IMG/VR virus record: IMGVR_UViG_2711768009_000009 | Direction: 5' to 3' (one strand) | Origin: a virus | Lineage: Duplodnaviria; Heunggongvirae; Uroviricota; Caudoviricetes | Length of the DNA stretch: 43,679 bases | In this document: in pieces, positions 8,845 to 43,540 of the stretch | How the letters are laid out: every line of letters begins with the position of its first letter | Numbering within the stretch: position 1 is the stretch's first letter | The notes under the pieces: generated by a model | What the model was told of the DNA's origin: nothing | Seen by the model: the letters and a program-made list of their open reading frames with translations, nothing else | The model's database searches: none | Position numbers and translations under genes: made by a program

Positions 8845-9411
8845 TCACGGTACTTTTGGTGACGGAGCTGGTGAGGCAGGAAAATAACGATAAAGGGTGG
8901 AAAGGCCAATATCAAATATCAGTGCGATTTGTTTACGGGACTCGCCATTAGCCAGCAAACGGGCGATTTGCTCCCGCTCTTTCTCTGTCAGTTTCTGAGG
9001 TCTGCCGCCATGACGCCCCTGAGCACGGGCAGCAGCAAGACCCGCGCGTGTACGTTCAATAATGAGTTCCCGCTCCATTTCCGCCAGCGCGCCCATTATA
9101 TGGAAAAAGAAACGTCCCATGGGAGTGGATGTATCAATATTGTCCGTAATGCTGCGGAAGTTAACGCCGCGTTGCCGGAGTTCTTCTGTTAAAAGGACAA
9201 GGTGCTGCATACTGCGTCCAAGGCGATCCAGTTTCCAGACCAGCAGGGTATCCCCTGGCCGGAGTCGCTTTAATGCGCGTTTAAGTCCGGGACGCTCCCT
9301 TGTCTTACCGCTTATTCTGTCTTCGAAAAACAGCTCACATCCTGCACATTCCAGCGCATTTCTTTGTAGCGCCGTATTCTGGTCATTTGTTGACACCCTG
9401 ATATACCCAAT
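8845..9411 (-). CDS. gin: Gin/Hin/Pin-family serine DNA invertase (188 resolved codons; start codon lies in the adjacent N-run)
   Basis: IGYIRVSTNDQNTALQRNALECAGCE...VWKLDRLGRSMQHLV...MGRFFFHIMGALAEMERELIIERT... is a near-canonical Gin sequence with the catalytic Ser motif. Confidence 0.9.
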   Translation of the reverse strand: MGYIRVSTNDQNTALQRNALECAGCELFFEDRISGKTRERPGLKRALKRLRPGDTLLVWKLDRLGRSMQHLVLLTEELRQRGVNFRSITDNIDTSTPMGRFFFHIMGALAEMERELIIERTRAGLAAARAQGRHGGRPQKLTEKEREQIARLLANGESRKQIALIFDIGLSTLYRYFPASPAPSPKVP

Positions 9412-9668
9412 NNNNNNNNNNNNNNNNNNNNNNNNNNNNNNNNNNNNNNNNNNNNNNNNNNNNNNNNNNNNNNNNNNNNNNNNNNNNNNNNNNNNNNNNN
9501 NNNNNNNNNNNNNNNNNNNNNNNNNNNNNNNNNNNNNNNNNNNNNNNNNNNNNNNNNNNNNNNNNNNNNNNNNNNNNNNNNNNNNNNNNNNNNNNNNNNN
9601 NNNNNNNNNNNNNNNNNNNNNNNNNNNNNNNNNNNNNNNNNNNNNNNNNNNNNNNNNNNNNNNNNNNN
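9412..9668. other. Unresolved sequence (257 N) at the expected gin-proximal inversion crossover site
   Basis: N-run directly upstream of gin and adjacent to the alternative tail-fibre segment. Confidence 0.9.
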
Positions 9669-9871
9669 CCGCCATAAGACTGGGGTCGGTGACCGCACAT
9701 ATGCCCGGAACATGGGAAAGCTGGGATCTGAATCTGGGGGGCGGCAATGTTCTTACCGGAATTAAAGTACAGGATGTCGGTAAGAATACGGCAGATAACG
9801 TCGGCGGCGTGTATTACCGGCCGTTGCAGTATCTGTTAAATGGAGCATGGGTGACGGCTGCAAGTATATAA
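9669..9871 (+). CDS. Alternative tail-fibre C-terminal segment (S'v-like), 66 resolved codons on the opposite strand; silent in this orientation
   Basis: Post-gap part of ORF 9062..9871; ends ...NVGGVYYRPLQYLLNGAWVTAASI*; convergent with the S/U genes, as expected for the second variable cassette of an invertible segment. Confidence 0.4.
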
Positions 9872-9879
9872 TGATATTC

Positions 9880-9899
9880 AGAAGGCCTTCCGGCCTTCT
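9880..9899. terminator. Hairpin between convergent S'v fragment and tail fibre assembly gene (stem AGAAGGCC/GGCCTTCT, loop TTCC), T-rich on the plus side
   Basis: Perfect 8-bp stem with 4-nt loop, followed by TTATTACTG on the plus strand. Confidence 0.5.
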
Positions 9900-9902
9900 T
9901 TA

Positions 9903-10424
9903 TTACTGTGGCTGCTCAGGCCATTTAATGGCGTTAAATTCAGCTTCTGTTTTAATGGCGGGTAGTTCCATTTTCTTCACCTGACTGATGTATGCCATCC
10001 ATTGGGTAAGTGCTGCTCTGTCTTCATCGCTGATGGTGCCCAGTTGTAGCTCCGTTCTCCAGTCATTAATTTTTTCATATGCCTGATTAAGATATGACTG
10101 GCGCATTGCTTCCAGTTTTCTTGCGTAGTTAACCGGAATACGGGAGATTATGCCATTATCAAACTTCCAGTTTCCTGAAATATCCGTGCCTTCAGGGAGT
10201 TCATCGACCTCAACCACAGAAAACCCCGCAGGATACAGCGCCGAGGCGTCCTGTGATATTGAGCAGATAACGCCGCTGTCAGGTGTTATGCAAAGTTTAT
10301 ATTTTTTGGTGAATAATGGCAGGGATTCGTAGAAATCCTTACCATCTTCACTCTGGAAATACTGAACATTATTACCATATGGCATATTTTCAGGATAATA
10401 ACGGGTTATATTTTTTAGTTCCAT
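9903..10424 (-). CDS. Tail fibre assembly protein (Mu U-like), 173 aa
   Basis: ORF track; immediately downstream of the tail fibre gene; GGAGG RBS; size and position as for Mu U. Confidence 0.75.
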   Translation of the reverse strand: MELKNITRYYPENMPYGNNVQYFQSEDGKDFYESLPLFTKKYKLCITPDSGVICSISQDASALYPAGFSVVEVDELPEGTDISGNWKFDNGIISRIPVNYARKLEAMRQSYLNQAYEKINDWRTELQLGTISDEDRAALTQWMAYISQVKKMELPAIKTEAEFNAIKWPEQPQ

Positions 10425-10475
10425 AAAATCCTCCTGGAAATAAATCTGTTTTAAAATATATTATTTACTGACTAT

Positions 10476-11392
10476 TTATAACTGAGATACCGTAATCCAT
10501 GTACCTCCGACTAATTTTTGCAGGGGTCTGAATGCTATAAAATCGTTTGAAGCATCAACTTTACTGTCAATCTGCAGGCCTGCCATAACATTACCGTACG
10601 CAGAGTAATATGCCCCACCGTACATTACCTGCCTGTTCTCTGCTCCCAGCCTGATATCCTGGATATATCGGGAATCCGCATCCTGCTGTGTTATACCAGA
10701 AGTGATGTTTATGTCCTGCGTCCCGTCAAAGGGAACCCCATTAATATTTCTTGGGGTGGCGAGTCTATTCGCGGCAACGGCGGTGCCGTCCGATGGCAGN
10801 NNNNNNNNNNNNNNNNNNNNNNNNNNNNNNNNNNNNNNNNNNNNNNNNNNNNNNNNNNNNNNNNNNNNNNNNNNNNNNNNNNNNNNNNNNNNNNNNNNNN
10901 NNNNNNNNNNNNNNNNNNNNNNNNNNNNNNNNNNNNNNNNNNNNNNNNNNNNNNNNNNNNNNNNNNNNNNNNNNNNNNNNNNNNNNNNNNNNNNNNNNNN
11001 NNNNNNNNNNNNNNNNNNNNNNNNNNNNNNGCGGGACCAAGACTGTTTTTTGTGGCAAGCGTCCCCAGACCAAGATAACCACGGGCCAGACGCTGGGCCT
11101 CCGCACCGGCATCAGCAATTTCTTTCAGGTTATTTTTCCGGGAAAAGGCATTCGCAGCGATAATGGCTTTAATGGACAGCGTAAGCTGGTTTAACTGCGC
11201 CTTATCCGGCTGAATACTGGCTTCAGCCAGAATATTCAGCAGTTCGGCCTGGAGAATATTCAGCCAGTCCTGACCAATCCAGCTGATACCTTTTTGTCCG
11301 TCACCTTCGGTAAACCAGGTGGTGGTATTACTCTGCGCCGGTGCCAGCGCAGGCATATTCGCCACGCCGGAATTATTATCAACATGAAACAT
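10476..11392 (-). CDS. Tail fibre protein (Mu S-like), interrupted by an N-run; constant N-terminal part 11031-11392, variable C-terminal part 10476-10799 in a different apparent frame
   Basis: N-terminal part from ORF track 10709..11392; post-gap frame translates ...AVAANRLATPRNINGVPFDGTQDINITSG...GTWITVSQL*, a tail-fibre-like repeat region ending 50 bp before the U-like gene. Confidence 0.7.
10800..11030. other. Unresolved sequence (231 N) inside the tail fibre gene at the expected constant/variable junction
   Basis: N-run; reading frame before and after is not continuous for this length, so the gap length is probably arbitrary. Confidence 0.85.
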
Positions 11393-25496: not shown

Positions 25497-25576
25497 GTCA
25501 GTGTACGCTTAACTGGTAAAGTCGGTGCCTGCCTCCGGGTGGATCATGTATGCGGGTTCGACCCCCGCCACTGACC
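25497..25576 (+). other. tRNA-like partial cloverleaf in the F-G intergenic region: 7-bp acceptor-type stem plus T-arm with GGGTTCGACCC loop; no anticodon arm
   Basis: GTCAGTG (25497-25503) pairs with CACTGAC (25569-25575); GCGGG-TTCGACC-CCCGC hairpin at 25552-25568. Confidence 0.3.
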
Positions 25577-25577
25577 G

Positions 25578-26909
25578 TTAATCAATTTGTCCTTCCAGCA
25601 CCTCAAGCATTCCGCCCCGGATATCCGATTTCAGCTTATCCATATTGATAACCCGGTAAGCATTCACAATCACATCCAGTTTGTCGGGCTGACGTTTCAG
25701 ACTGTACGGTGCATTAACGGCAATCTGCACACTGCCATCCTGATTTTCCACGATATACATCAGATTGTTGTGCCGTTTGTCCCACAGTACCGCTTTTGGC
25801 CTTGCCAGCATTGCCGGTAAGCGCCCGAAGTCCTCCGGCGTCAGAGCGATGCCGTCATTCTGATGTTTCACACTGTCCGCATGGAGCACATTTTTACCGC
25901 TCATCGCCAGCAGGCGGGCCGGTGGCGTTCCCGTCCGGCTTTCCACTGCCTGCGCAATGCTTTCAGTCATAAAGCCCAGCGTGCGGATATCGTTACCACC
26001 TCGCCGGGTCTGCATGATGTTTTTTGCCCAGATGCGGAACGCCAGCTGCCGCTCCGGGCTGTTGTTCATCTCCTGAACCACCATTTCCCGTAACGCCGGG
26101 CTTTTCACCTCGATCAGTTTGCGGATCAGCGCCTGGTCTGTGCCGAACGCTGCCGAGCCGGGGTTATATGACCAGCCCACATCCGGTGTCATGGTTCTGG
26201 CGCCATCTGAATATGTGGTCACCGGCATTTCTCTGACTTCTCCGGTCTGTTTATCCACGCCAGCCTCAACATTGCGGGTGGAGAGATGATCCTCACCGGA
26301 TGAAACGGATAACCCCATTGCATCCAGACGGGCCTGAGACAATGGCCGCACACGGCAGCGGCAGTTCCAGCCATTGGGCGGGTAGTGTGTTTTCCAGAAC
26401 GGATCGTCATAGCGGAATACCAGACCGTTAAGGGCGGAATGCGACGGGCGGGTACGGCTGTCCATGACCGCCACATACTGCCAGAACGGATGCGTGTCCG
26501 TGTTGTTCATCATCTGCGTGTAACGCCCGGCATTGTAAGCCACACGGGTGTTCACGTTGTAAATCAGCGCCAGACGACGGGGACTGCCCTGCTGCACTTC
26601 TTCCGCGTTACCGTCGCTGTCCACCACAATCTGCTTTCCCCACCATCCCAGCTTTTGCAGGCGTGGCGTCAGTGTGCGGATAAATTCTTTCTGTGAAATC
26701 CCCTCATCAATGGCCCGCTGCACTTCGGCCTGTAATGTGGTTACCACATCCAGCCGTGCCGTTTTTGCTGCCGTGAATGAGCGGGCATGAACATCCGCGT
26801 CTGTTTCGAACCAGTTCCAGCTGATATGCGCCCCTTTGGCGCGGAAGTATGCCACCGTCTCTTTTGAGGGAAGCGTGGCGGCATAACCTAAATCAATCCC
26901 CTGAGCCAT
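25578..26909 (-). CDS. Head morphogenesis protein, Mu F-like (443 aa)
   Basis: ORF track; size and position after portal. Confidence 0.8.
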   Translation of the reverse strand: MAQGIDLGYAATLPSKETVAYFRAKGAHISWNWFETDADVHARSFTAAKTARLDVVTTLQAEVQRAIDEGISQKEFIRTLTPRLQKLGWWGKQIVVDSDGNAEEVQQGSPRRLALIYNVNTRVAYNAGRYTQMMNNTDTHPFWQYVAVMDSRTRPSHSALNGLVFRYDDPFWKTHYPPNGWNCRCRVRPLSQARLDAMGLSVSSGEDHLSTRNVEAGVDKQTGEVREMPVTTYSDGARTMTPDVGWSYNPGSAAFGTDQALIRKLIEVKSPALREMVVQEMNNSPERQLAFRIWAKNIMQTRRGGNDIRTLGFMTESIAQAVESRTGTPPARLLAMSGKNVLHADSVKHQNDGIALTPEDFGRLPAMLARPKAVLWDKRHNNLMYIVENQDGSVQIAVNAPYSLKRQPDKLDVIVNAYRVINMDKLKSDIRGGMLEVLEGQID

Positions 26910-28482
26910 CCAGCATCCCCTTCATTTCCGCAGCAAACATGGCATCACTGAGCAGCGTCATCAGGCGGGAATCATCCATTTCACGGTAAAGGGCAGGCAG
27001 GTCTGCCAGTGCCTCCGCCAGCCCCCGCGTTCTGATGACATCAATGACCGGCTCCAGCACCGGATCGATGGCCTCCTGTAAGCGGCGGGCAGGCACCGCG
27101 TCCCCCATGTCGTCCAGTTCATCACGCGGCGTGTTTTTCGCTTCCGGCAGTCGGGCTGAAAGCGCCGTCTGTTCTGTCTTTTCCTGTTTTTCCGGTAGCG
27201 TTTCCCTGTCAGGCATGGCCGGTTCATTACTGCTCTGACGGACACGGAATATGGCTTCACCGGGCGTGGGCTGTGGAATACCGGTCTGATCCCGTACCCA
27301 GGGATCAGGAATATCCATCCCCGCACTGAGTTGCATCACCGCACTGGCTATTTTGGTGATATCCCCCGGTTCTTTGGTCTGGAAACAGATACGCGGCAGG
27401 CGACGGATATCAATGGCGTGGGCGGTGTTCAGGGCATACAGCGGATACACCAGATCGCGGTTCAGGGTTGCAGCCAGCTGGCGTAAATCAGAATCCCTGA
27501 TTTCCCGGCGCACCTCGTTATGCACCTCACCCAGCGAGCGCGCGCCTTTGTCTCCGGCTTCTGTGGTCAGCGTGCCGCCGAGTATTGCTTTGGAGATGGA
27601 ACGCTCACCCCACGAAATCATGGTTTCAAACGGATCGGCCTGACCGTTCGCTGCCGCCTGAAACTCCAGCGACATCCCGGCCGGGATGATCCCGCCTGTA
27701 CGTCGCCCGATATCCATCACCGCCCGCATCAGGGCACTTTTCTGCTCCGGTGTTGCCCCGGACGGGTATTTCCCGACCTTCATTGGCAGGCCGTACACCT
27801 CCAGAAATTCCGCCAGATCGCGCACGGAATAGTTTTTGAAAATGAACGGCCAGATAAGCGTTCTGACAAGCCCCGTCGCACCACCGTAGCCGGTGCGTGA
27901 ACGCGACTGATGCACTATCCAGCCAAAGGGCTGAAACGCCACCCCGGCATGGCTGCCGTCACGCAGCCGCAGTTCGCTCAAATCATCCGGGTTAAGGCAG
28001 AAATGCCCGCTGTCACGCCAGCGGATGGCGCGGATGATGTGCATTTTACCGAGCATCCCGTGCTCAATTTCCATGCAGGAATAGCCCTTCAGGATGGCAT
28101 CCGTGGCGTCAAACAGCATGGCATCAAACCAGTCTGCGGAATGCAGATATTCGTCGAGCATTTCCGCGTCCTTTTTCTCATTCGCGCTGGCGTTCGGTGG
28201 CGGCTCAATACTCCATGGCACCCCCTGAATGGCAAGACGTCGCTTGCCCAGCTCCGCAAAAAGGTGGGTGTCCTTTTCTTCAATATCAGCGGCCAGATCG
28301 GACTGGGCAATCAGATCGCCACGTTCAGCCCCGCGAAGGCACTGCGCCGCCCGGTTCGGGGTGATACCCGAAGCCGGATGTTCAATATAACGGCTGGCAA
28401 TCTGCGGAATATCCAGCGCGGCACTCTGCATCTCCGGGTCAAAGGAGAAAGGTTTTCCGTCAGTATCAATGATGCGTCCCAC
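26893..28482 (-). CDS. Portal protein, Mu gp29-like (529 aa)
   Basis: ORF track; size and position after terminase large subunit. Confidence 0.85.
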   Translation of the reverse strand: MGRIIDTDGKPFSFDPEMQSAALDIPQIASRYIEHPASGITPNRAAQCLRGAERGDLIAQSDLAADIEEKDTHLFAELGKRRLAIQGVPWSIEPPPNASANEKKDAEMLDEYLHSADWFDAMLFDATDAILKGYSCMEIEHGMLGKMHIIRAIRWRDSGHFCLNPDDLSELRLRDGSHAGVAFQPFGWIVHQSRSRTGYGGATGLVRTLIWPFIFKNYSVRDLAEFLEVYGLPMKVGKYPSGATPEQKSALMRAVMDIGRRTGGIIPAGMSLEFQAAANGQADPFETMISWGERSISKAILGGTLTTEAGDKGARSLGEVHNEVRREIRDSDLRQLAATLNRDLVYPLYALNTAHAIDIRRLPRICFQTKEPGDITKIASAVMQLSAGMDIPDPWVRDQTGIPQPTPGEAIFRVRQSSNEPAMPDRETLPEKQEKTEQTALSARLPEAKNTPRDELDDMGDAVPARRLQEAIDPVLEPVIDVIRTRGLAEALADLPALYREMDDSRLMTLLSDAMFAAEMKGMLDGSGD

Positions 28483-30149
28483 TACCAGCCCCCCCGATCA
28501 AATTCATGATATGCCTCATCGTCATCACGATAACCGCCCTCCATTGCCCGCGACCGCTCCTGTAGCGCCTGACAGGCTGATTCATCCAGGATGAAGCCCT
28601 CCATGTATGACGCCCGGTTTGCCATACAGAGCGCCACGGCAAAATCACCATGGCGGCGGGCGTTCGCAGCCGTTGCGTTCTGGTCCTTCGTGCGCCCCTT
28701 GTCGATTTGCGGGATACCATTCACTACCTTCACATGGCGCAAATCATCAAGCGTGGTCTGATGGCGGGCGACGAGGATATTCTGATCTTCAAACTCGGCT
28801 TTCAGTTTTGGCATCCACTCGCCGTACCACTTCGGCGACAACATCACGCAGTCGATGATGTCCGGGCCAAAGGCCAGCAGTGCGGCCTCTGCCAGATAGC
28901 CGCCGTTACCGGTGGCGTCGAACGCCGCACCGACCAGCGCCGGAACGCGGGTCAGGATGTACATCATCACCTGTTCCTGCTGGGCATACGGCAGGTTGCG
29001 CAGCTCCACGCGAAACACCTCGCGCTTTGCCAGGGATTCGGTGATTTCCAGCAGCACAAAGCAGGACAGGTCACCGGTGCGGGCAAAGTCTTCCCCGAAG
29101 CTGAAGCGGGAACGGGGATTTAATTTCTCTAAAAGCGGTTTTAAATGTTCTTCACACCAGGTTAAAACTTCCGATTCACGCAGCCATGCGGCACGGCTGA
29201 TGAAGTTGTCCGGGGCTTCAAACGTCAGAATCGGGATGTCGCGGATCATCGCCATTTCAATAAGCGCGTGGGGGATATAGGCACCGCCGGATTTTTTCGG
29301 GATACAGCCGTATTCCTCGTCGGCATCCTCACGGGTCGGGGCGTTTTTGTAGAGATCATCACGCCATTTCTGCTCGCTTTCCGGTGACCATTCCTGATCG
29401 GTGACGTAACAGATACGACGGTACAGCCCGTCCGCAATGGCATCATCCAGGGTTATGCGGTGGACGCTGTAATCCTTGCGCCCCTCGCGGGCTTCCTGAA
29501 TGTACTGATTAAACAGATTATCGACGCCGTTATGCGTGGAGATAATACGCACGCGCGCGCCCCACATAGTGAGCGCCATTGCCGCCTTGAGAAGCTCATC
29601 CAGTGACTCGTGGAACGCGGCTTCATCAATCACCACATCCCCCTGAAGGCCGCGCAGGTTTGACGGACGGGAAGACAATGCCTGAATTTTGAATCCACTG
29701 TTCGGAAAGCGGATCATGTAGGTCAAAATTTCTTCTTTTTTATCCCGATCCCAGAATGTCTGCTCATACACATCAGCATCTGCCAGCTGGTTAAAGGCAC
29801 GGGAGAACAGCGCGCAGGCAGAAATATATTCCAGCGCCATCTCCTGCTTTGATCCCACATAAAACACATTGCGGCCACCACGACGCTTCGGTTTTGCAGC
29901 AGTAATGACGTTACGCCCGGCTTCCGCCCAGGTAAGACCGGTGCGGCGGGATTTCTCCGCGATGCAGACCTGACTTTCATCTGCAAACCAGCGGGCCTGA
30001 TAATCCAGAAACACCGGCATATCACCGGGCAAATCAAGGCTGTCCGGCACATCCACGCCCAGCAGGGCTTTTTCACCTGACAGATCAATTTTGCGGGGAG
30101 GCGTCATTTGCATCAGTGAAGGCGACGTTTCTCTGGCTTTGTTCATCAT
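28482..30149 (-). CDS. Terminase large subunit, Mu gp28-like (555 aa)
   Basis: ORF track; ...GDVVIDEAAF... Walker-B-like motif; size and position. Confidence 0.85.
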   Translation of the reverse strand: MMNKARETSPSLMQMTPPRKIDLSGEKALLGVDVPDSLDLPGDMPVFLDYQARWFADESQVCIAEKSRRTGLTWAEAGRNVITAAKPKRRGGRNVFYVGSKQEMALEYISACALFSRAFNQLADADVYEQTFWDRDKKEEILTYMIRFPNSGFKIQALSSRPSNLRGLQGDVVIDEAAFHESLDELLKAAMALTMWGARVRIISTHNGVDNLFNQYIQEAREGRKDYSVHRITLDDAIADGLYRRICYVTDQEWSPESEQKWRDDLYKNAPTREDADEEYGCIPKKSGGAYIPHALIEMAMIRDIPILTFEAPDNFISRAAWLRESEVLTWCEEHLKPLLEKLNPRSRFSFGEDFARTGDLSCFVLLEITESLAKREVFRVELRNLPYAQQEQVMMYILTRVPALVGAAFDATGNGGYLAEAALLAFGPDIIDCVMLSPKWYGEWMPKLKAEFEDQNILVARHQTTLDDLRHVKVVNGIPQIDKGRTKDQNATAANARRHGDFAVALCMANRASYMEGFILDESACQALQERSRAMEGGYRDDDEAYHEFDRGGW

Positions 30150-30394
30150 GCTTTACCTGTCAGAATGCTTTTGATTCGGGACTCAAGCTCTTCAGTCATC
30201 ACGTCCACGCCGCTCAACTCATCAGTGGCAGCCTCTGCCAGCAGCGAATGCAGTTGTTCCAGGGATATTTCCCCGGCAATGCTGAGTTCAGTCAACTCAC
30301 GACATACCTTTATGGTTTCAGGAGGTAACTGTGTTGCAAGACTGAATGCTTTCTGATGGGCACTGCTCATCAGTGAGCGGTTATCTGTTGCCAT
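30146..30394 (-). CDS. Hypothetical 82-aa protein whose last ~28 residues duplicate the C-terminus of the upstream small-terminase-like protein
   Basis: ORF track; ...AATDELSGVDVMTEELESRIKSILTGKA vs ...AVTDELRGVDGMSEQIEFRIRQMLLGKA; DNA also ~85% identical over this stretch. Confidence 0.5.
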   Translation of the reverse strand: MATDNRSLMSSAHQKAFSLATQLPPETIKVCRELTELSIAGEISLEQLHSLLAEAATDELSGVDVMTEELESRIKSILTGKA

Positions 30395-30404
30395 GATTCA
30401 CCTC

Positions 30405-30986
30405 CTACGCCTTACCCAGCAGCATCTGCCTGATACGGAATTCGATCTGCTCGCTCATGCCATCCACGCCGCGCAACTCATCGGTGACCGCATTCGCCAT
30501 CTCTTCAGCAAATGCGGCCCGGATTTCTTTTTCACGCTTAATGCTGCGCTCGGCGGCACTTTCTGCACGCTGTGCCGACAGGAGGATGTCCTTAATAAGG
30601 CGCATATCCACATCGCTGTCGCTGTTCAGGGATTCGGTGGCGGCACGCAGACGGCGGTACATCAGGGCACGGGACATCTCCAGAATCAGTGCCGTGGTTT
30701 CACCGGTCGGCTTATCCCCCAGTTCGGCCATCATGGCTTTTGTCTGCTCGCGTAAATCACGCAGATTACGGGCAATCAGCTCATTACGGGAGGCTTCCCG
30801 GCTGATGGCCGCCGGTGAGAGCTGCTGCTCTTCCGGCAGACCTGCTTCACGGATCAGACGGTTGATTTCCTCGCGGATCTGGACCTGCGTCAGACGTTTT
30901 TCACGCAGCATTTCCAGCAGCGGCTTACGGATGCTGTCGGGGAGCAAATCCACCTTGCGTACACGGCCACGCGCTGGCTTATCCAT
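30405..30986 (-). CDS. Putative terminase small subunit, Mu gp27-like (193 aa)
   Basis: ORF track; basic N-terminal DNA-binding-like region; immediately upstream of the large terminase. Confidence 0.6.
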   Translation of the reverse strand: MDKPARGRVRKVDLLPDSIRKPLLEMLREKRLTQVQIREEINRLIREAGLPEEQQLSPAAISREASRNELIARNLRDLREQTKAMMAELGDKPTGETTALILEMSRALMYRRLRAATESLNSDSDVDMRLIKDILLSAQRAESAAERSIKREKEIRAAFAEEMANAVTDELRGVDGMSEQIEFRIRQMLLGKA

Positions 30987-30988
30987 CG

Positions 30989-31279
30989 TTACCCCCTTGC
31001 GCGTGGTTTCTTCACACCCGGAACGGTGGCGCGGCCTTCCGCCACATCCTGACCCCGGCCGGTCAGTTCAGCGATGAAATAACCGTTAACAAGCGTGCGC
31101 TTACGCACCAGTCCCTGCTCGGCAAGCCAGGCAATGTGGGTATGAACGGTGTCGCGGGACACGCGGTGACCGTAATCATCCAGGCAGTCCTGAAGCACGG
31201 ATTCGCCCAGTTCGCCGTTGTAATCCGCCAGCGACCGCAGAATGACAAGACGCTGATCTTCAGTAATGAAATCACTCAT
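30989..31279 (-). CDS. Mu gp26-like small protein (96 aa)
   Basis: ORF track; position only. Confidence 0.5.
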   Translation of the reverse strand: MSDFITEDQRLVILRSLADYNGELGESVLQDCLDDYGHRVSRDTVHTHIAWLAEQGLVRKRTLVNGYFIAELTGRGQDVAEGRATVPGVKKPRARG

Positions 31280-32466: not shown

Positions 32467-32967
32467 TCAGACTTTCGGCAAATCGTAACGACATAACCAT
32501 TCATCCGCCGAACGGCGGGCCTCAAGACCGGGGAGTTTTACCCCCTTTGAATAAATCCAGCGGATATACTGCTTACAGGACGCGGGCATCTGCCCGGCAT
32601 TGATAAGGCGCAGGAGCGTGGAGTTGCGAAAGTTCGTTTCACCGGCCCAGAAAATCCAGGAGGCCAGCGCCACCGTCTGACCACGGGTAAGCGGCACCTG
32701 AACATGACGATCGATAGCCGCAAAGGCCCATTTCATGTCCTTTTCCAGCAGCTCCAGACACTCTTCATCAGTTTTTGTCATCCCCGGTTTCACATCCGGG
32801 CCGGTATGGCCGTAACAGATGGTGGGGGTGCCGGTGGGATCAATGTACGTGGTGTTTTCTTTCCCTTCCCAGTAGCCGGTGTAGTGCGTGGCAATGGTGA
32901 ACGTCCCGGCTCCGGCCAGAACAAGGGCAATCAGCTTTTTACGCAGGGGTGCGGGGAGTTTTGGCAT
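32467..32967 (-). CDS. SAR-type endolysin, GH24 (T4-lysozyme-like) with N-terminal signal-anchor (166 aa)
   Basis: ORF track; hydrophobic LIALVLAGAGTFTIA then catalytic motif YWEGKENTTYIDPTGTPTICYGHTG. Confidence 0.8.
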   Translation of the reverse strand: MPKLPAPLRKKLIALVLAGAGTFTIATHYTGYWEGKENTTYIDPTGTPTICYGHTGPDVKPGMTKTDEECLELLEKDMKWAFAAIDRHVQVPLTRGQTVALASWIFWAGETNFRNSTLLRLINAGQMPASCKQYIRWIYSKGVKLPGLEARRSADEWLCRYDLPKV

Positions 32968-42861: not shown

Positions 42862-43016
42862 GTATCAAATGAGTTGCCGATTTTATAATAAATGACTAAT
42901 TATTGCACAATCGGTATCAAATAGACCTTATCCGCACATCTAGCCATCACCTGTTTTATTTCAGTATCTTACAGGTGATTTCACCTCCTTTCACTAAACC
43001 CCTTGTCGGTATCAAA
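42862..43016. repeat. Left-end (attL-like) set of three spaced TTTGATAC(CG) repeats (reverse complement on the plus strand), putative transposase binding sites L1-L3
   Basis: GTATCAAA at 42862-42869, CGGTATCAAA at 42912-42921 and 43007-43016; wider spacing than at the right end, as for Mu attL versus attR. Confidence 0.6.
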
Positions 43017-43020
43017 TGAT

Positions 43021-43344
43021 TCACCTGGTTATATGTCGCCAGTCGATACCTTCCAGCAGCATCGCCAGCTGCGCCTGTGTAAGGAACACTTTGCCATCAC
43101 GGGCTGACGGCCAGGCGAAGCGCCCACGCTCCAGCCGTTTGGTCAGGAGGCACAGTCCGTCACTGGTGGACCACAGCAGTTTAACCTGACTGCCGCTGCG
43201 GCCCCGGAAAATGAAAACATGGCCGGACATGGGATCGTCTTTCAGCGCCGTCTGTACTTTCGCAGCCAGGCCGTTGAAGCCATTTCTCATATCGGTGATA
43301 CCGGCAACCAGCCAAATTTTGATCCCGGAAGGTAACGGGATCAT
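43021..43344 (-). CDS. tnpB: IS66-family TnpB (orf2), 107 aa, C-terminus probably altered by the prophage junction
   Basis: ORF track; MIPLPSGIKIWLVAGITDMRNGFNGLAAKVQ...HVFIFRGRSGSQVKLLW...GLCLLTKRLERGRF is a canonical IS66 Orf2 sequence. Confidence 0.85.
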   Translation of the reverse strand: MIPLPSGIKIWLVAGITDMRNGFNGLAAKVQTALKDDPMSGHVFIFRGRSGSQVKLLWSTSDGLCLLTKRLERGRFAWPSARDGKVFLTQAQLAMLLEGIDWRHITR

Positions 43345-43540
43345 CGCTTCAGTTCCTGTATCAGCAGAGTCAGGAGCTTTTCGCTGACATTGCCATTGAA
43401 GCGGAGCGTCCCGTGCCGGAACGTTACCTCACAGCTGATACTGAGGGTTTTCGGGTCCTCTGCGAGCGATTCTGGCTGTTCGGCAGCTGCATCGAGAGTC
43501 ACAGGAAGTAGCTGGGGGCTCTCTGAAGAAGGTAATAGCT
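43024..43540 (-). mobile_element. IS66-family element remnant (tnpA 3' part plus tnpB); 5' end replaced by the IS3-family end, 3' side interrupted by the Mu-like prophage
   Basis: Same element and orientation as the tnpC fragment at 3765-4265. Confidence 0.6.
43341..43540 (-). CDS. tnpA: IS66-family TnpA (orf1), C-terminal part only
   Basis: ORF track 43341..43571; the first ~10 codons of the listed ORF lie in the IS3-family terminal repeat. Confidence 0.55.

Follow-up and report, generated by a model that had tools for sequence, protein, structure and literature searches.

Junctions in the mosaic genomes of tailed phages arise by illegitimate recombination followed by selection (Hendrix-type mosaicism), and the Staphylococcus aureus pathogenicity island protein Ppi is a small protein which binds the small terminase subunit (TerS) and acts against another element. 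Rpp of phage-inducible chromosomal islands (PMC6739421) and TerI of a Listeria prophage (10.1101/2025.02.27.640495) likewise bind TerS and act against another element, and in lambda and P22 the C-terminus of TerS binds the N-terminus of the large terminase subunit, TerL (review PMC9611059). Here we describe orf82, an 82-codon open reading frame (ORF) in IMG/VR virus record IMGVR_UViG_2711768009_000009, a stretch of 43,679 nucleotides (the window) which is a complete Mu-like prophage within an Escherichia coli chromosome. orf82 lies between the gene for a gp27-like small terminase and that for TerL, and we favour with moderate confidence, from sequence comparison, the explanation that it is a chimeric accessory gene produced by unequal (illegitimate) recombination of two Mu-like phages at the gp27/TerL junction.

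The locus resembles described mosaic junctions in its sharp transitions between near-identical and diverged DNA at or near gene boundaries, in the duplication of part of a flanking gene and in the intactness of the essential genes. It differs in that here an unrelated small ORF continues in frame into the leftover fragment, with retention of a stop/start overlap with the downstream essential gene, and unlike the usual scar orf82 would be a translated chimeric protein. With Mu gp27 and its family (PF11985, DUF3486) orf82 shares the last 31 residues (58% identical), the same predicted layout of this segment and a position immediately upstream of TerL, but it lacks the N-terminal helix-turn-helix-like region and the long central helices and is not a small terminase. 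The likeness to Rpp, Ppi and TerI is conceptual only: all three are small and helical, are encoded on mobile elements and, by analogy, orf82 could bind a terminase subunit, but they are not derived from a TerS tail, whereas orf82 belongs to the late packaging operon of the phage itself. No PADLOC model matched orf82 at E<=1, and no similarity to terminase inhibitors or defence proteins was found. In contrast to a classical phage moron, orf82 has neither its own promoter nor its own terminator (no sigma-70-like promoter and no convincing coding-strand terminator were found between gp27, orf82 and TerL) and is embedded in the operon by its Shine-Dalgarno (SD) sequence and its stop/start overlap.

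An earlier sequence-only reading of this DNA had described the C-termini of the 82-residue ORF and the gp27-like protein as paralogous. Both ORFs were present as claimed, with the downstream gene identified as TerL by phrog_2 (E=5e-43), and BLASTP aligned orf82 residues 52–82 (tail B) with gp27 residues 163–193 (tail A) without gaps, with 18/31 identical and 24/31 positive positions (E=3e-10). The accompanying figure of approximately 85% DNA identity had to be lowered to 63/96 (66%) over the 31 codons and stop, since identity of 83%–88% was confined to the best 25–30-nt core (88% at 25 nt, 83% at 30 nt). Local DNA alignment of the two tails scored 43, while the maximum of 500 shuffles was 27; together with the BLASTP result this places the similarity far above chance. 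Identity at codon positions 1, 2 and 3 was 25/32, 24/32 and 14/32, and the low third-position value is the signature of protein-level conservation. A generic repeat finder did not report the tail pair. Tail B fits the gp27 motif DELRG.DGMSE.LE.RI..[IV]LLGKA except at four substituted invariant positions, and the gp27 tail nearest to it is that of the type found at locus L001 (22/31 identical).

Outside the tail no relationship to gp27 was evident. orf82 gave no match to PF11985 even at E<=10, and the only Pfam result at this threshold was a sub-threshold and irrelevant one (HIGH_NTase1, E=0.019). We also rejected the idea that the N-terminal domain began as a copy of the part of gp27 which lies upstream of the tail and then diverged, BLASTP showing no similarity there. 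AlphaFold2 (AF2) models, at low to moderate confidence for secondary structure, gave orf82 and gp27 the same succession, in which a long helix ends, a loop rich in Gly follows and an amphipathic helix forms the terminus. The orf82 model contained three helices in the N-domain (mean pLDDT 70.6), and the gp27 model (pLDDT 54, low confidence) was used for secondary structure only. No fold in BFVD matched the orf82 model at E<=0.001. A PDB profile search with gp27 returned nothing under E=0.1, from which we conclude that no gp27 relative has been solved.

The homology of orf82 is in two parts, and the N-terminal part belongs to another family. By BLASTP it matched a 65-aa ORF of Citrobacter braakii (locus L015) with 35% identity over 43 aa (E=4e-7), and profile searches recovered a family of 59–71-aa proteins (P0132–P0155; partly phrog_30922) at E=1e-24 to 1e-10, the matches of 65–71 aa coming from Salmonella, Citrobacter and E. 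coli. The family and the N-terminal ~50 residues of orf82 have in common the motifs AH..AF, CR and IA.G, and an exhaustive hidden Markov model (HMM) search of 1.84 billion representatives yielded only 11 matches to the N-part family. Genomic context was recovered for three tail-less relatives, from Citrobacter (L015), an E. coli-like metagenomic contig (L069) and Salmonella (L073); in each, the small ORF occupies the same slot as orf82, between gp27 and TerL and on the same strand, and in the 65-aa forms of Citrobacter and Salmonella the stop codon also overlaps the TerL start. The gp27-like tail, by contrast, is present in orf82 only, alignment showing it to be absent from all of the 59–71-aa relatives, whose C-termini are of at least three different kinds. 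Comparison of the tail-less family with gp27 by hhalign yielded nothing significant (probability 0.8%) and nothing that fell on the tail, and the DNA of the tail-less small ORFs was not significantly similar to their own gp27 tails, 39–41 of 500 shuffles reaching the score. A degenerate tail in the 65-aa family (LEDKVKKV compared with LEARIKGV) was considered and rejected, as hhalign aligned a different region at that same low probability and the DNA comparison was not significant. Because the relatives without a tail are diverse and spread across genera, because all tailed forms fall into one shallow E. coli clade (at least 79% identity) and because no residual tail was detected, we regard the tailed fusion as the derived form.

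Comparison with two relatives delimited a mosaic patch around the junction. In the window and L069 the same sequence covers gp27, unusual tail A included, the SD sequence and codons 1–33 of the small ORF; beyond codon 33 the two diverge completely, and identity returns at the TerL codons for PPRKIDL. When the window was compared with L001, which has no orf82, the gp27 bodies were 97% identical, the sequences diverged from the start of the tail to approximately TerL codon 17 and they were identical thereafter. The first 16–20 residues of TerL are hypervariable among otherwise near-identical prophages (L001 ~2480–2534; L069 3324–3385), and identity resumes exactly at PPRKIDL. Tail A of the window itself departs from 43 related gp27 tails at L19I, A21F, G25Q and V26M (30405–30460, ...SEQIEFRIRQMLLGKA), and this variant was found only in prophages which carry a downstream small ORF (window type and L069).

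The synonymous divergence (dS) between tails A and B was 1.84, that between B and the L001-type tail was 0.64 and that between A and the L001-type tail was saturated. Since dS between A and B is ~1.8 while the gp27 bodies are 97% identical, the two tails are not a recent duplication made in place, and they thus appear to stem from different gp27 lineages joined by recombination. The L001 tail as a recent recombinant between A and B, with deletion of orf82, was rejected: it looks hybrid in its amino acids, but its DNA is diverged from both. These values also bear on an origin in situ, in which the gp27 3' end was tandemly duplicated, the small ORF originated between the copies or entered there by insertion, and Salmonella and Citrobacter later lost the tail. 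Two direct copies do flank the sequence coding for the N-domain, and an 87-aa junction ORF of Salmonella ends in ...AEGLRGAELYLFVRYFVGKTS, with a faint LRG/GK likeness to the tail, but the dS between the copies compares with 0.05–0.18 for flanking genes among relatives, neither hhalign nor the DNA shuffles (39–41/500 reaching the score) revealed a residual tail in the tail-less forms, and these forms, in contrast to the one shallow clade with a tail, are diverse and found in several genera. This origin is already disfavoured and we consider it very unlikely. Recombination between two phages, put forward in the sequence-only reading as a module-exchange scar, is supported by the tail-less homologues at the same junction, by the dS between the tails and by a mosaic patch with conserved borders.

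Related prophages were then surveyed for the presence of orf82, which is lacking in most of them yet intact in a defined E. coli lineage. Approximately 207 complete E. coli genomes, mostly of Shiga toxin-producing E. coli, contain a close relative without orf82 in which gp27 runs directly into TerL, and two Shiga toxin phage records with an inserted Mu-like phage show the same arrangement. Eight records of Mu-like phages were inspected (Mu, Shewanella, Pseudoalteromonas HS6, Klebsiella, two Vibrio, Pseudomonas JBD25 and Pasteurella); in the seven that are annotated (all but Klebsiella), gp27 either overlaps TerL or ends no more than 7 nt from its start. Of 54 prophage loci from other species, most likewise have a gp27 stop that overlaps TerL, the gaps in Mu-like loci being -1, -4 or -8, and the overlap of the orf82 stop with the TerL start reproduces this canonical gp27/TerL overlap.

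The gp27/TerL junction is a recurrent insertion hotspot for small genes. Unrelated small ORFs occupy it in Shewanella, Vibrio, Enterovibrio, Oceanospirillum, Endozoicomonas and Salmonella loci (L027, L030, L035, ~4100–4560; L060–L062; L063; L067; L078–L080, 3087–3356). They include ORFs for a 117-aa hydrophobic, possibly membrane protein (Shewanella), a 68-aa protein of phrog_1761 (Vibrio, Enterovibrio, Oceanospirillum), a 58-aa hydrophobic protein, an 84-aa protein of phrog_322 and the 87-aa Salmonella protein. Pseudoalteromonas phage HS6 carries a 51-aa ORF between TerL and portal (L008, 4676–4831), another tight junction with a small gene.

Judged by its sequence features, orf82 looks like a real gene. 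A near-consensus SD sequence, GGAGGTG, lies 5 nt before the ATG/GTG start, and the spacer containing it (TAGGAGGTGAATC) is unchanged in five allelic loci and in L069. The phrog_30922 HMM (unknown function) matched orf82 at E=6.9e-52 over residues 2–82 of the model's 82 positions, and RefSeq carries the product as a hypothetical protein (WP_000179787.1). Of 5426 complete E. coli genomes, 25 contained DNA specific to orf82, and the ORF was open in each of these. The tail B peptide was found in 17 IMG/VR and JGI metagenome contigs, where orf82 was intact wherever it could be read (in one copy 2 aa are deleted in frame, and another runs off the end of its contig). On one metagenomic contig with an intact orf82 (L086, 931–1490) the upstream gp27 is split into pieces of 36 and 109 aa, which could be an assembly error or a decaying prophage. 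That orf82 is not a gene, and is only a chance open frame within an intergenic scar, we consider highly improbable. It is short, it has no Pfam match and its dN/dS (ratio of nonsynonymous to synonymous substitution rates) is the highest of the neighbourhood (pairwise 0.14–0.54, compared with 0–0.11 for gp26, gp27 and TerL). Against this stand the placement of the SD sequence, the overlap of its stop with the TerL start and the full-length phrog_30922 match, and the frame is open in 8 distinct DNA alleles and is kept by homologues across genera, the 65-aa family having an omega (dN/dS) of 0.31 between Citrobacter and Salmonella (neighbouring gp27 and TerL, 0.04–0.06).

The tail shared with orf82 is plausibly the element, or helix, by which gp27 docks on TerL. 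This interpretation draws on its conservation, on its co-occurrence with a TerL motif and on the lambda and P22 precedent. The last ~25 residues are the most conserved segment of gp27, even among phages whose gp27 proteins are only ~33% identical overall (Mu, Vibrio, Pseudomonas). Among 48 loci (among L007–L068), tails of class 1 (G.DGMSE..LLGKA) were accompanied by a TerL N-terminal extension with PRKIDL..LLGVD in 17/17 cases and tails of class 2 (AGLT..ILGIA) in 0/31 (table 17/0/0/31; Fisher p=2e-13, uncorrected for phylogeny or linkage). The premise of the sequence-only reading, that the TerS C-terminus contacts the large subunit, thus gains indirect support from this co-occurrence and from the lambda and P22 systems (PMC9611059), and a literature search on the biochemistry of Mu gp27 returned nothing specific.

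From such a docking role it might be supposed that orf82 is a functional mimic, which would dock through the copied helix on the TerL N-terminus or on the gp27 oligomer. It could then deliver its three-helix domain to the motor, compete with gp27 and so tune or delay terminase assembly, or hinder related Mu-like phages. The segment copied is the most conserved part of gp27 across distant phages, the co-occurrence with TerL PRKIDL is perfect (with the phylogeny-uncorrected p-value given above), the binding of TerS C-terminus to TerL N-terminus is established in lambda and P22 (PMC9611059), AF2 gives the two proteins a similar helix, loop and terminal helix layout, and small proteins which target terminase exist (Rpp, PMC6739421; TerI, 10.1101/2025.02.27.640495). 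Tail B also keeps the skeleton DEL..G.D.M.E.LE.RI..IL.GKA, with a pN/pS (ratio of nonsynonymous to synonymous polymorphism) of 0.37 (7 synonymous and 8 nonsynonymous changes in 8 distinct alleles). Tail A in the same prophages, however, had a pN/pS of 0.04 (16 synonymous, 2 nonsynonymous; Fisher p=0.02 for A vs B), and by this measure tail B appears to evolve about ten times faster than gp27's own tail. The orf82 N-domain had a pN/pS of 0.65 (p=0.25 vs neutrality). Tail B is changed at positions which are invariant or nearly so in 43 distinct gp27 tails (R10S, G14V, S16T, L28T), and the orf82 alleles add G to S, L to P and terminal Ala changes. Moreover, the relatives of the N-domain work without any tail, the tailed form is rare (25/5426 complete E. 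coli genomes) and a position in the late operon makes phage exclusion during lysogeny unlikely. On balance we find a functional mimic doubtful, and its more specific form, in which orf82 would be a "tail-only" TerS mimic docking on the PRKIDL region of TerL and either tethering an accessory domain there or titrating TerL away from gp27, unlikely. The selected decoy or regulator suggested in the sequence-only reading is thus unsupported, given the relaxed constraint on tail B and its altered gp27-invariant positions.

We return to recombination between two Mu-like phages as the preferred explanation. One parent would have had gp27, then a small junction gene of the 59–71-aa family, then TerL, and the other would have supplied the gp27 3' end together with the TerL start. 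In the simplest scenario a single unequal crossover would have joined codon ~51 of the small ORF to gp27 codon ~163, so that codons 1 to ~51 of the small gene read in frame into the last ~31 of gp27. An intact gp27 would remain upstream, and the fused ORF would stop exactly at the usual end point of gp27 and there overlap the start of TerL. The frame may have been kept mainly since ribosomes must reach the ATGA overlap for coupled translation of TerL, and an open frame with drifting residues is what would be expected if it served mainly to deliver ribosomes to the overlapping start. The tail peptide, probably gp27's TerL-docking helix, would then be a slowly drifting by-product and not a selected decoy. 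The direct evidence for a scar consists of the two-part homology, the synteny of the tail-less relatives, the mosaic boundaries, the SD sequence with the stop/start overlap and the relaxed constraint on the tail.

Several observations weigh against this explanation. Searches of the protein database, IMG/VR and the JGI metagenomes revealed no parental gp27 whose tail is of the B type, and all 17 IMG/VR and JGI occurrences of the B-specific peptide were inside orf82 homologues; we have to regard the two-parent scenario as a reconstruction and not as something observed. The only indication of translational coupling to TerL is the ATGA overlap, and in L069 TerL begins 119 nt beyond the small ORF with its own SD-like GGTAGG, indicating that coupling is not obligatory in this phage group. 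A few disrupted copies of orf82, truncated or frameshifted, were also encountered (P0008–P0011), a minority of the database entries. Finally, tail B retains most of the motif residues and its pN/pS is below 1 (p=0.065 vs neutrality), and some weak selection on the tail B peptide is possible.

The window was 99.9% identical to E. coli strain 102651 across the 1.2-kb region tested, and gp27 is annotated as WP_000360580.1 in the 99.9% identical genome. The late genes are on the minus strand in canonical Mu order, with the portal gene directly after TerL (Table 1). The gp27-like protein ends in ...AVTDELRGVDGMSEQIEFRIRQMLLGKA and matched the PF11985 model with 116 bits over model positions 1–173.

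Table 1. Positions in the window of the orf82 locus, its component segments and neighbouring late genes.
Feature	Position	Strand	Basis or remark
Lysozyme	32467-32967	-	annotation
TraR/DksA	late cluster	-	PF01258
DUF2730	late cluster	-	PF10805
gp26-like	30989-31279	-	phrog_436
gp27-like small terminase, 193 aa	30405-30986	-	PF11985 E=3.1e-33; phrog_426 "terminase small subunit" E=1.8e-54
Tail A, last 31 codons + stop of gp27, MANAVTDELRGVDGMSEQIEFRIRQMLLGKA*	30405-30500	-	BLASTP partner of orf82 tail
10-nt spacer; with gp27 stop codon forms SD for orf82, TAGGAGGTGAATC-ATG	30395-30404	-	sequence
orf82, 82 aa	30146-30394	-	phrog_30922 full-length; C-terminus ...AATDELSGVDVMTEELESRIKSILTGKA
orf82 N-terminal domain, codons 1-51	30242-30394	-	homology to 59-71-aa junction proteins
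Tail B, orf82 codons 52-82 + stop, LAEAATDELSGVDVMTEELESRIKSILTGKA*	30146-30241	-	similarity to gp27 3' end
ATGA overlap, orf82 stop/TerL start	30146-30149	-	sequence; translational coupling inferred
Hypervariable start of TerL (codons 1-16), in one mosaic patch with tail B	30102-30149	-	window, L001 and L069 strongly different
TerL motif PPRKIDL, right edge of mosaic patch, candidate gp27-tail docking site	30081-30101	-	near-identity resumes; co-occurrence
TerL (gp28-like large terminase, 555 aa)	28482-30149	-	phrog_2 "terminase large subunit" E=5.2e-43
Portal (Mu portal gene)	26893-28482	-	PF06074

Elsewhere in the window, a flagellar cluster (fliD, fliS, fliK-like, fliA-like) was found at 1–4400 and ~43000–43679, and a motility gene annotated as truncated (3648–4292) adjoins the prophage, which suggests insertion at a flagellar locus. 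Near one prophage end (6760–10484) are genes for a DUF6645 protein, an invertase-like member of the recombinase family and a tail-fibre assembly protein, together with a partial tail-protein pseudogene, a layout which recalls the invertible host-range region of the Mu G-segment type. In the near-identical genome RefSeq annotates a "tRNA-OTHER" within the head-gene cluster (window 25497–25584, plus strand), where ARAGORN found no tRNA.

We see in orf82 an instance of phage mosaicism, ordinary in kind and with an unusually legible anatomy, and not a new regulator that has been demonstrated. It shows at base-pair resolution how mosaicism can create a new translated protein, a short interaction motif of an essential gene having been grafted onto an unrelated accessory protein with the translational architecture of the packaging operon preserved. 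The most useful by-product is the pairing of the gp27 tail with the TerL N-terminal PRKIDL motif, a testable pointer to the TerS-TerL contact in Mu-like phages, and the recurrent gain of small genes at the gp27/TerL junction is a second testable result. If the grafted tail binds TerL, orf82 would offer a natural competitor peptide for studies of how the Mu terminase assembles. If orf82 were a mimic after all, it would be a terminase modulator which arose by motif capture resembling exon shuffling, and may serve as a built-in regulator of assembly or as a weapon against co-resident Mu-like phages.

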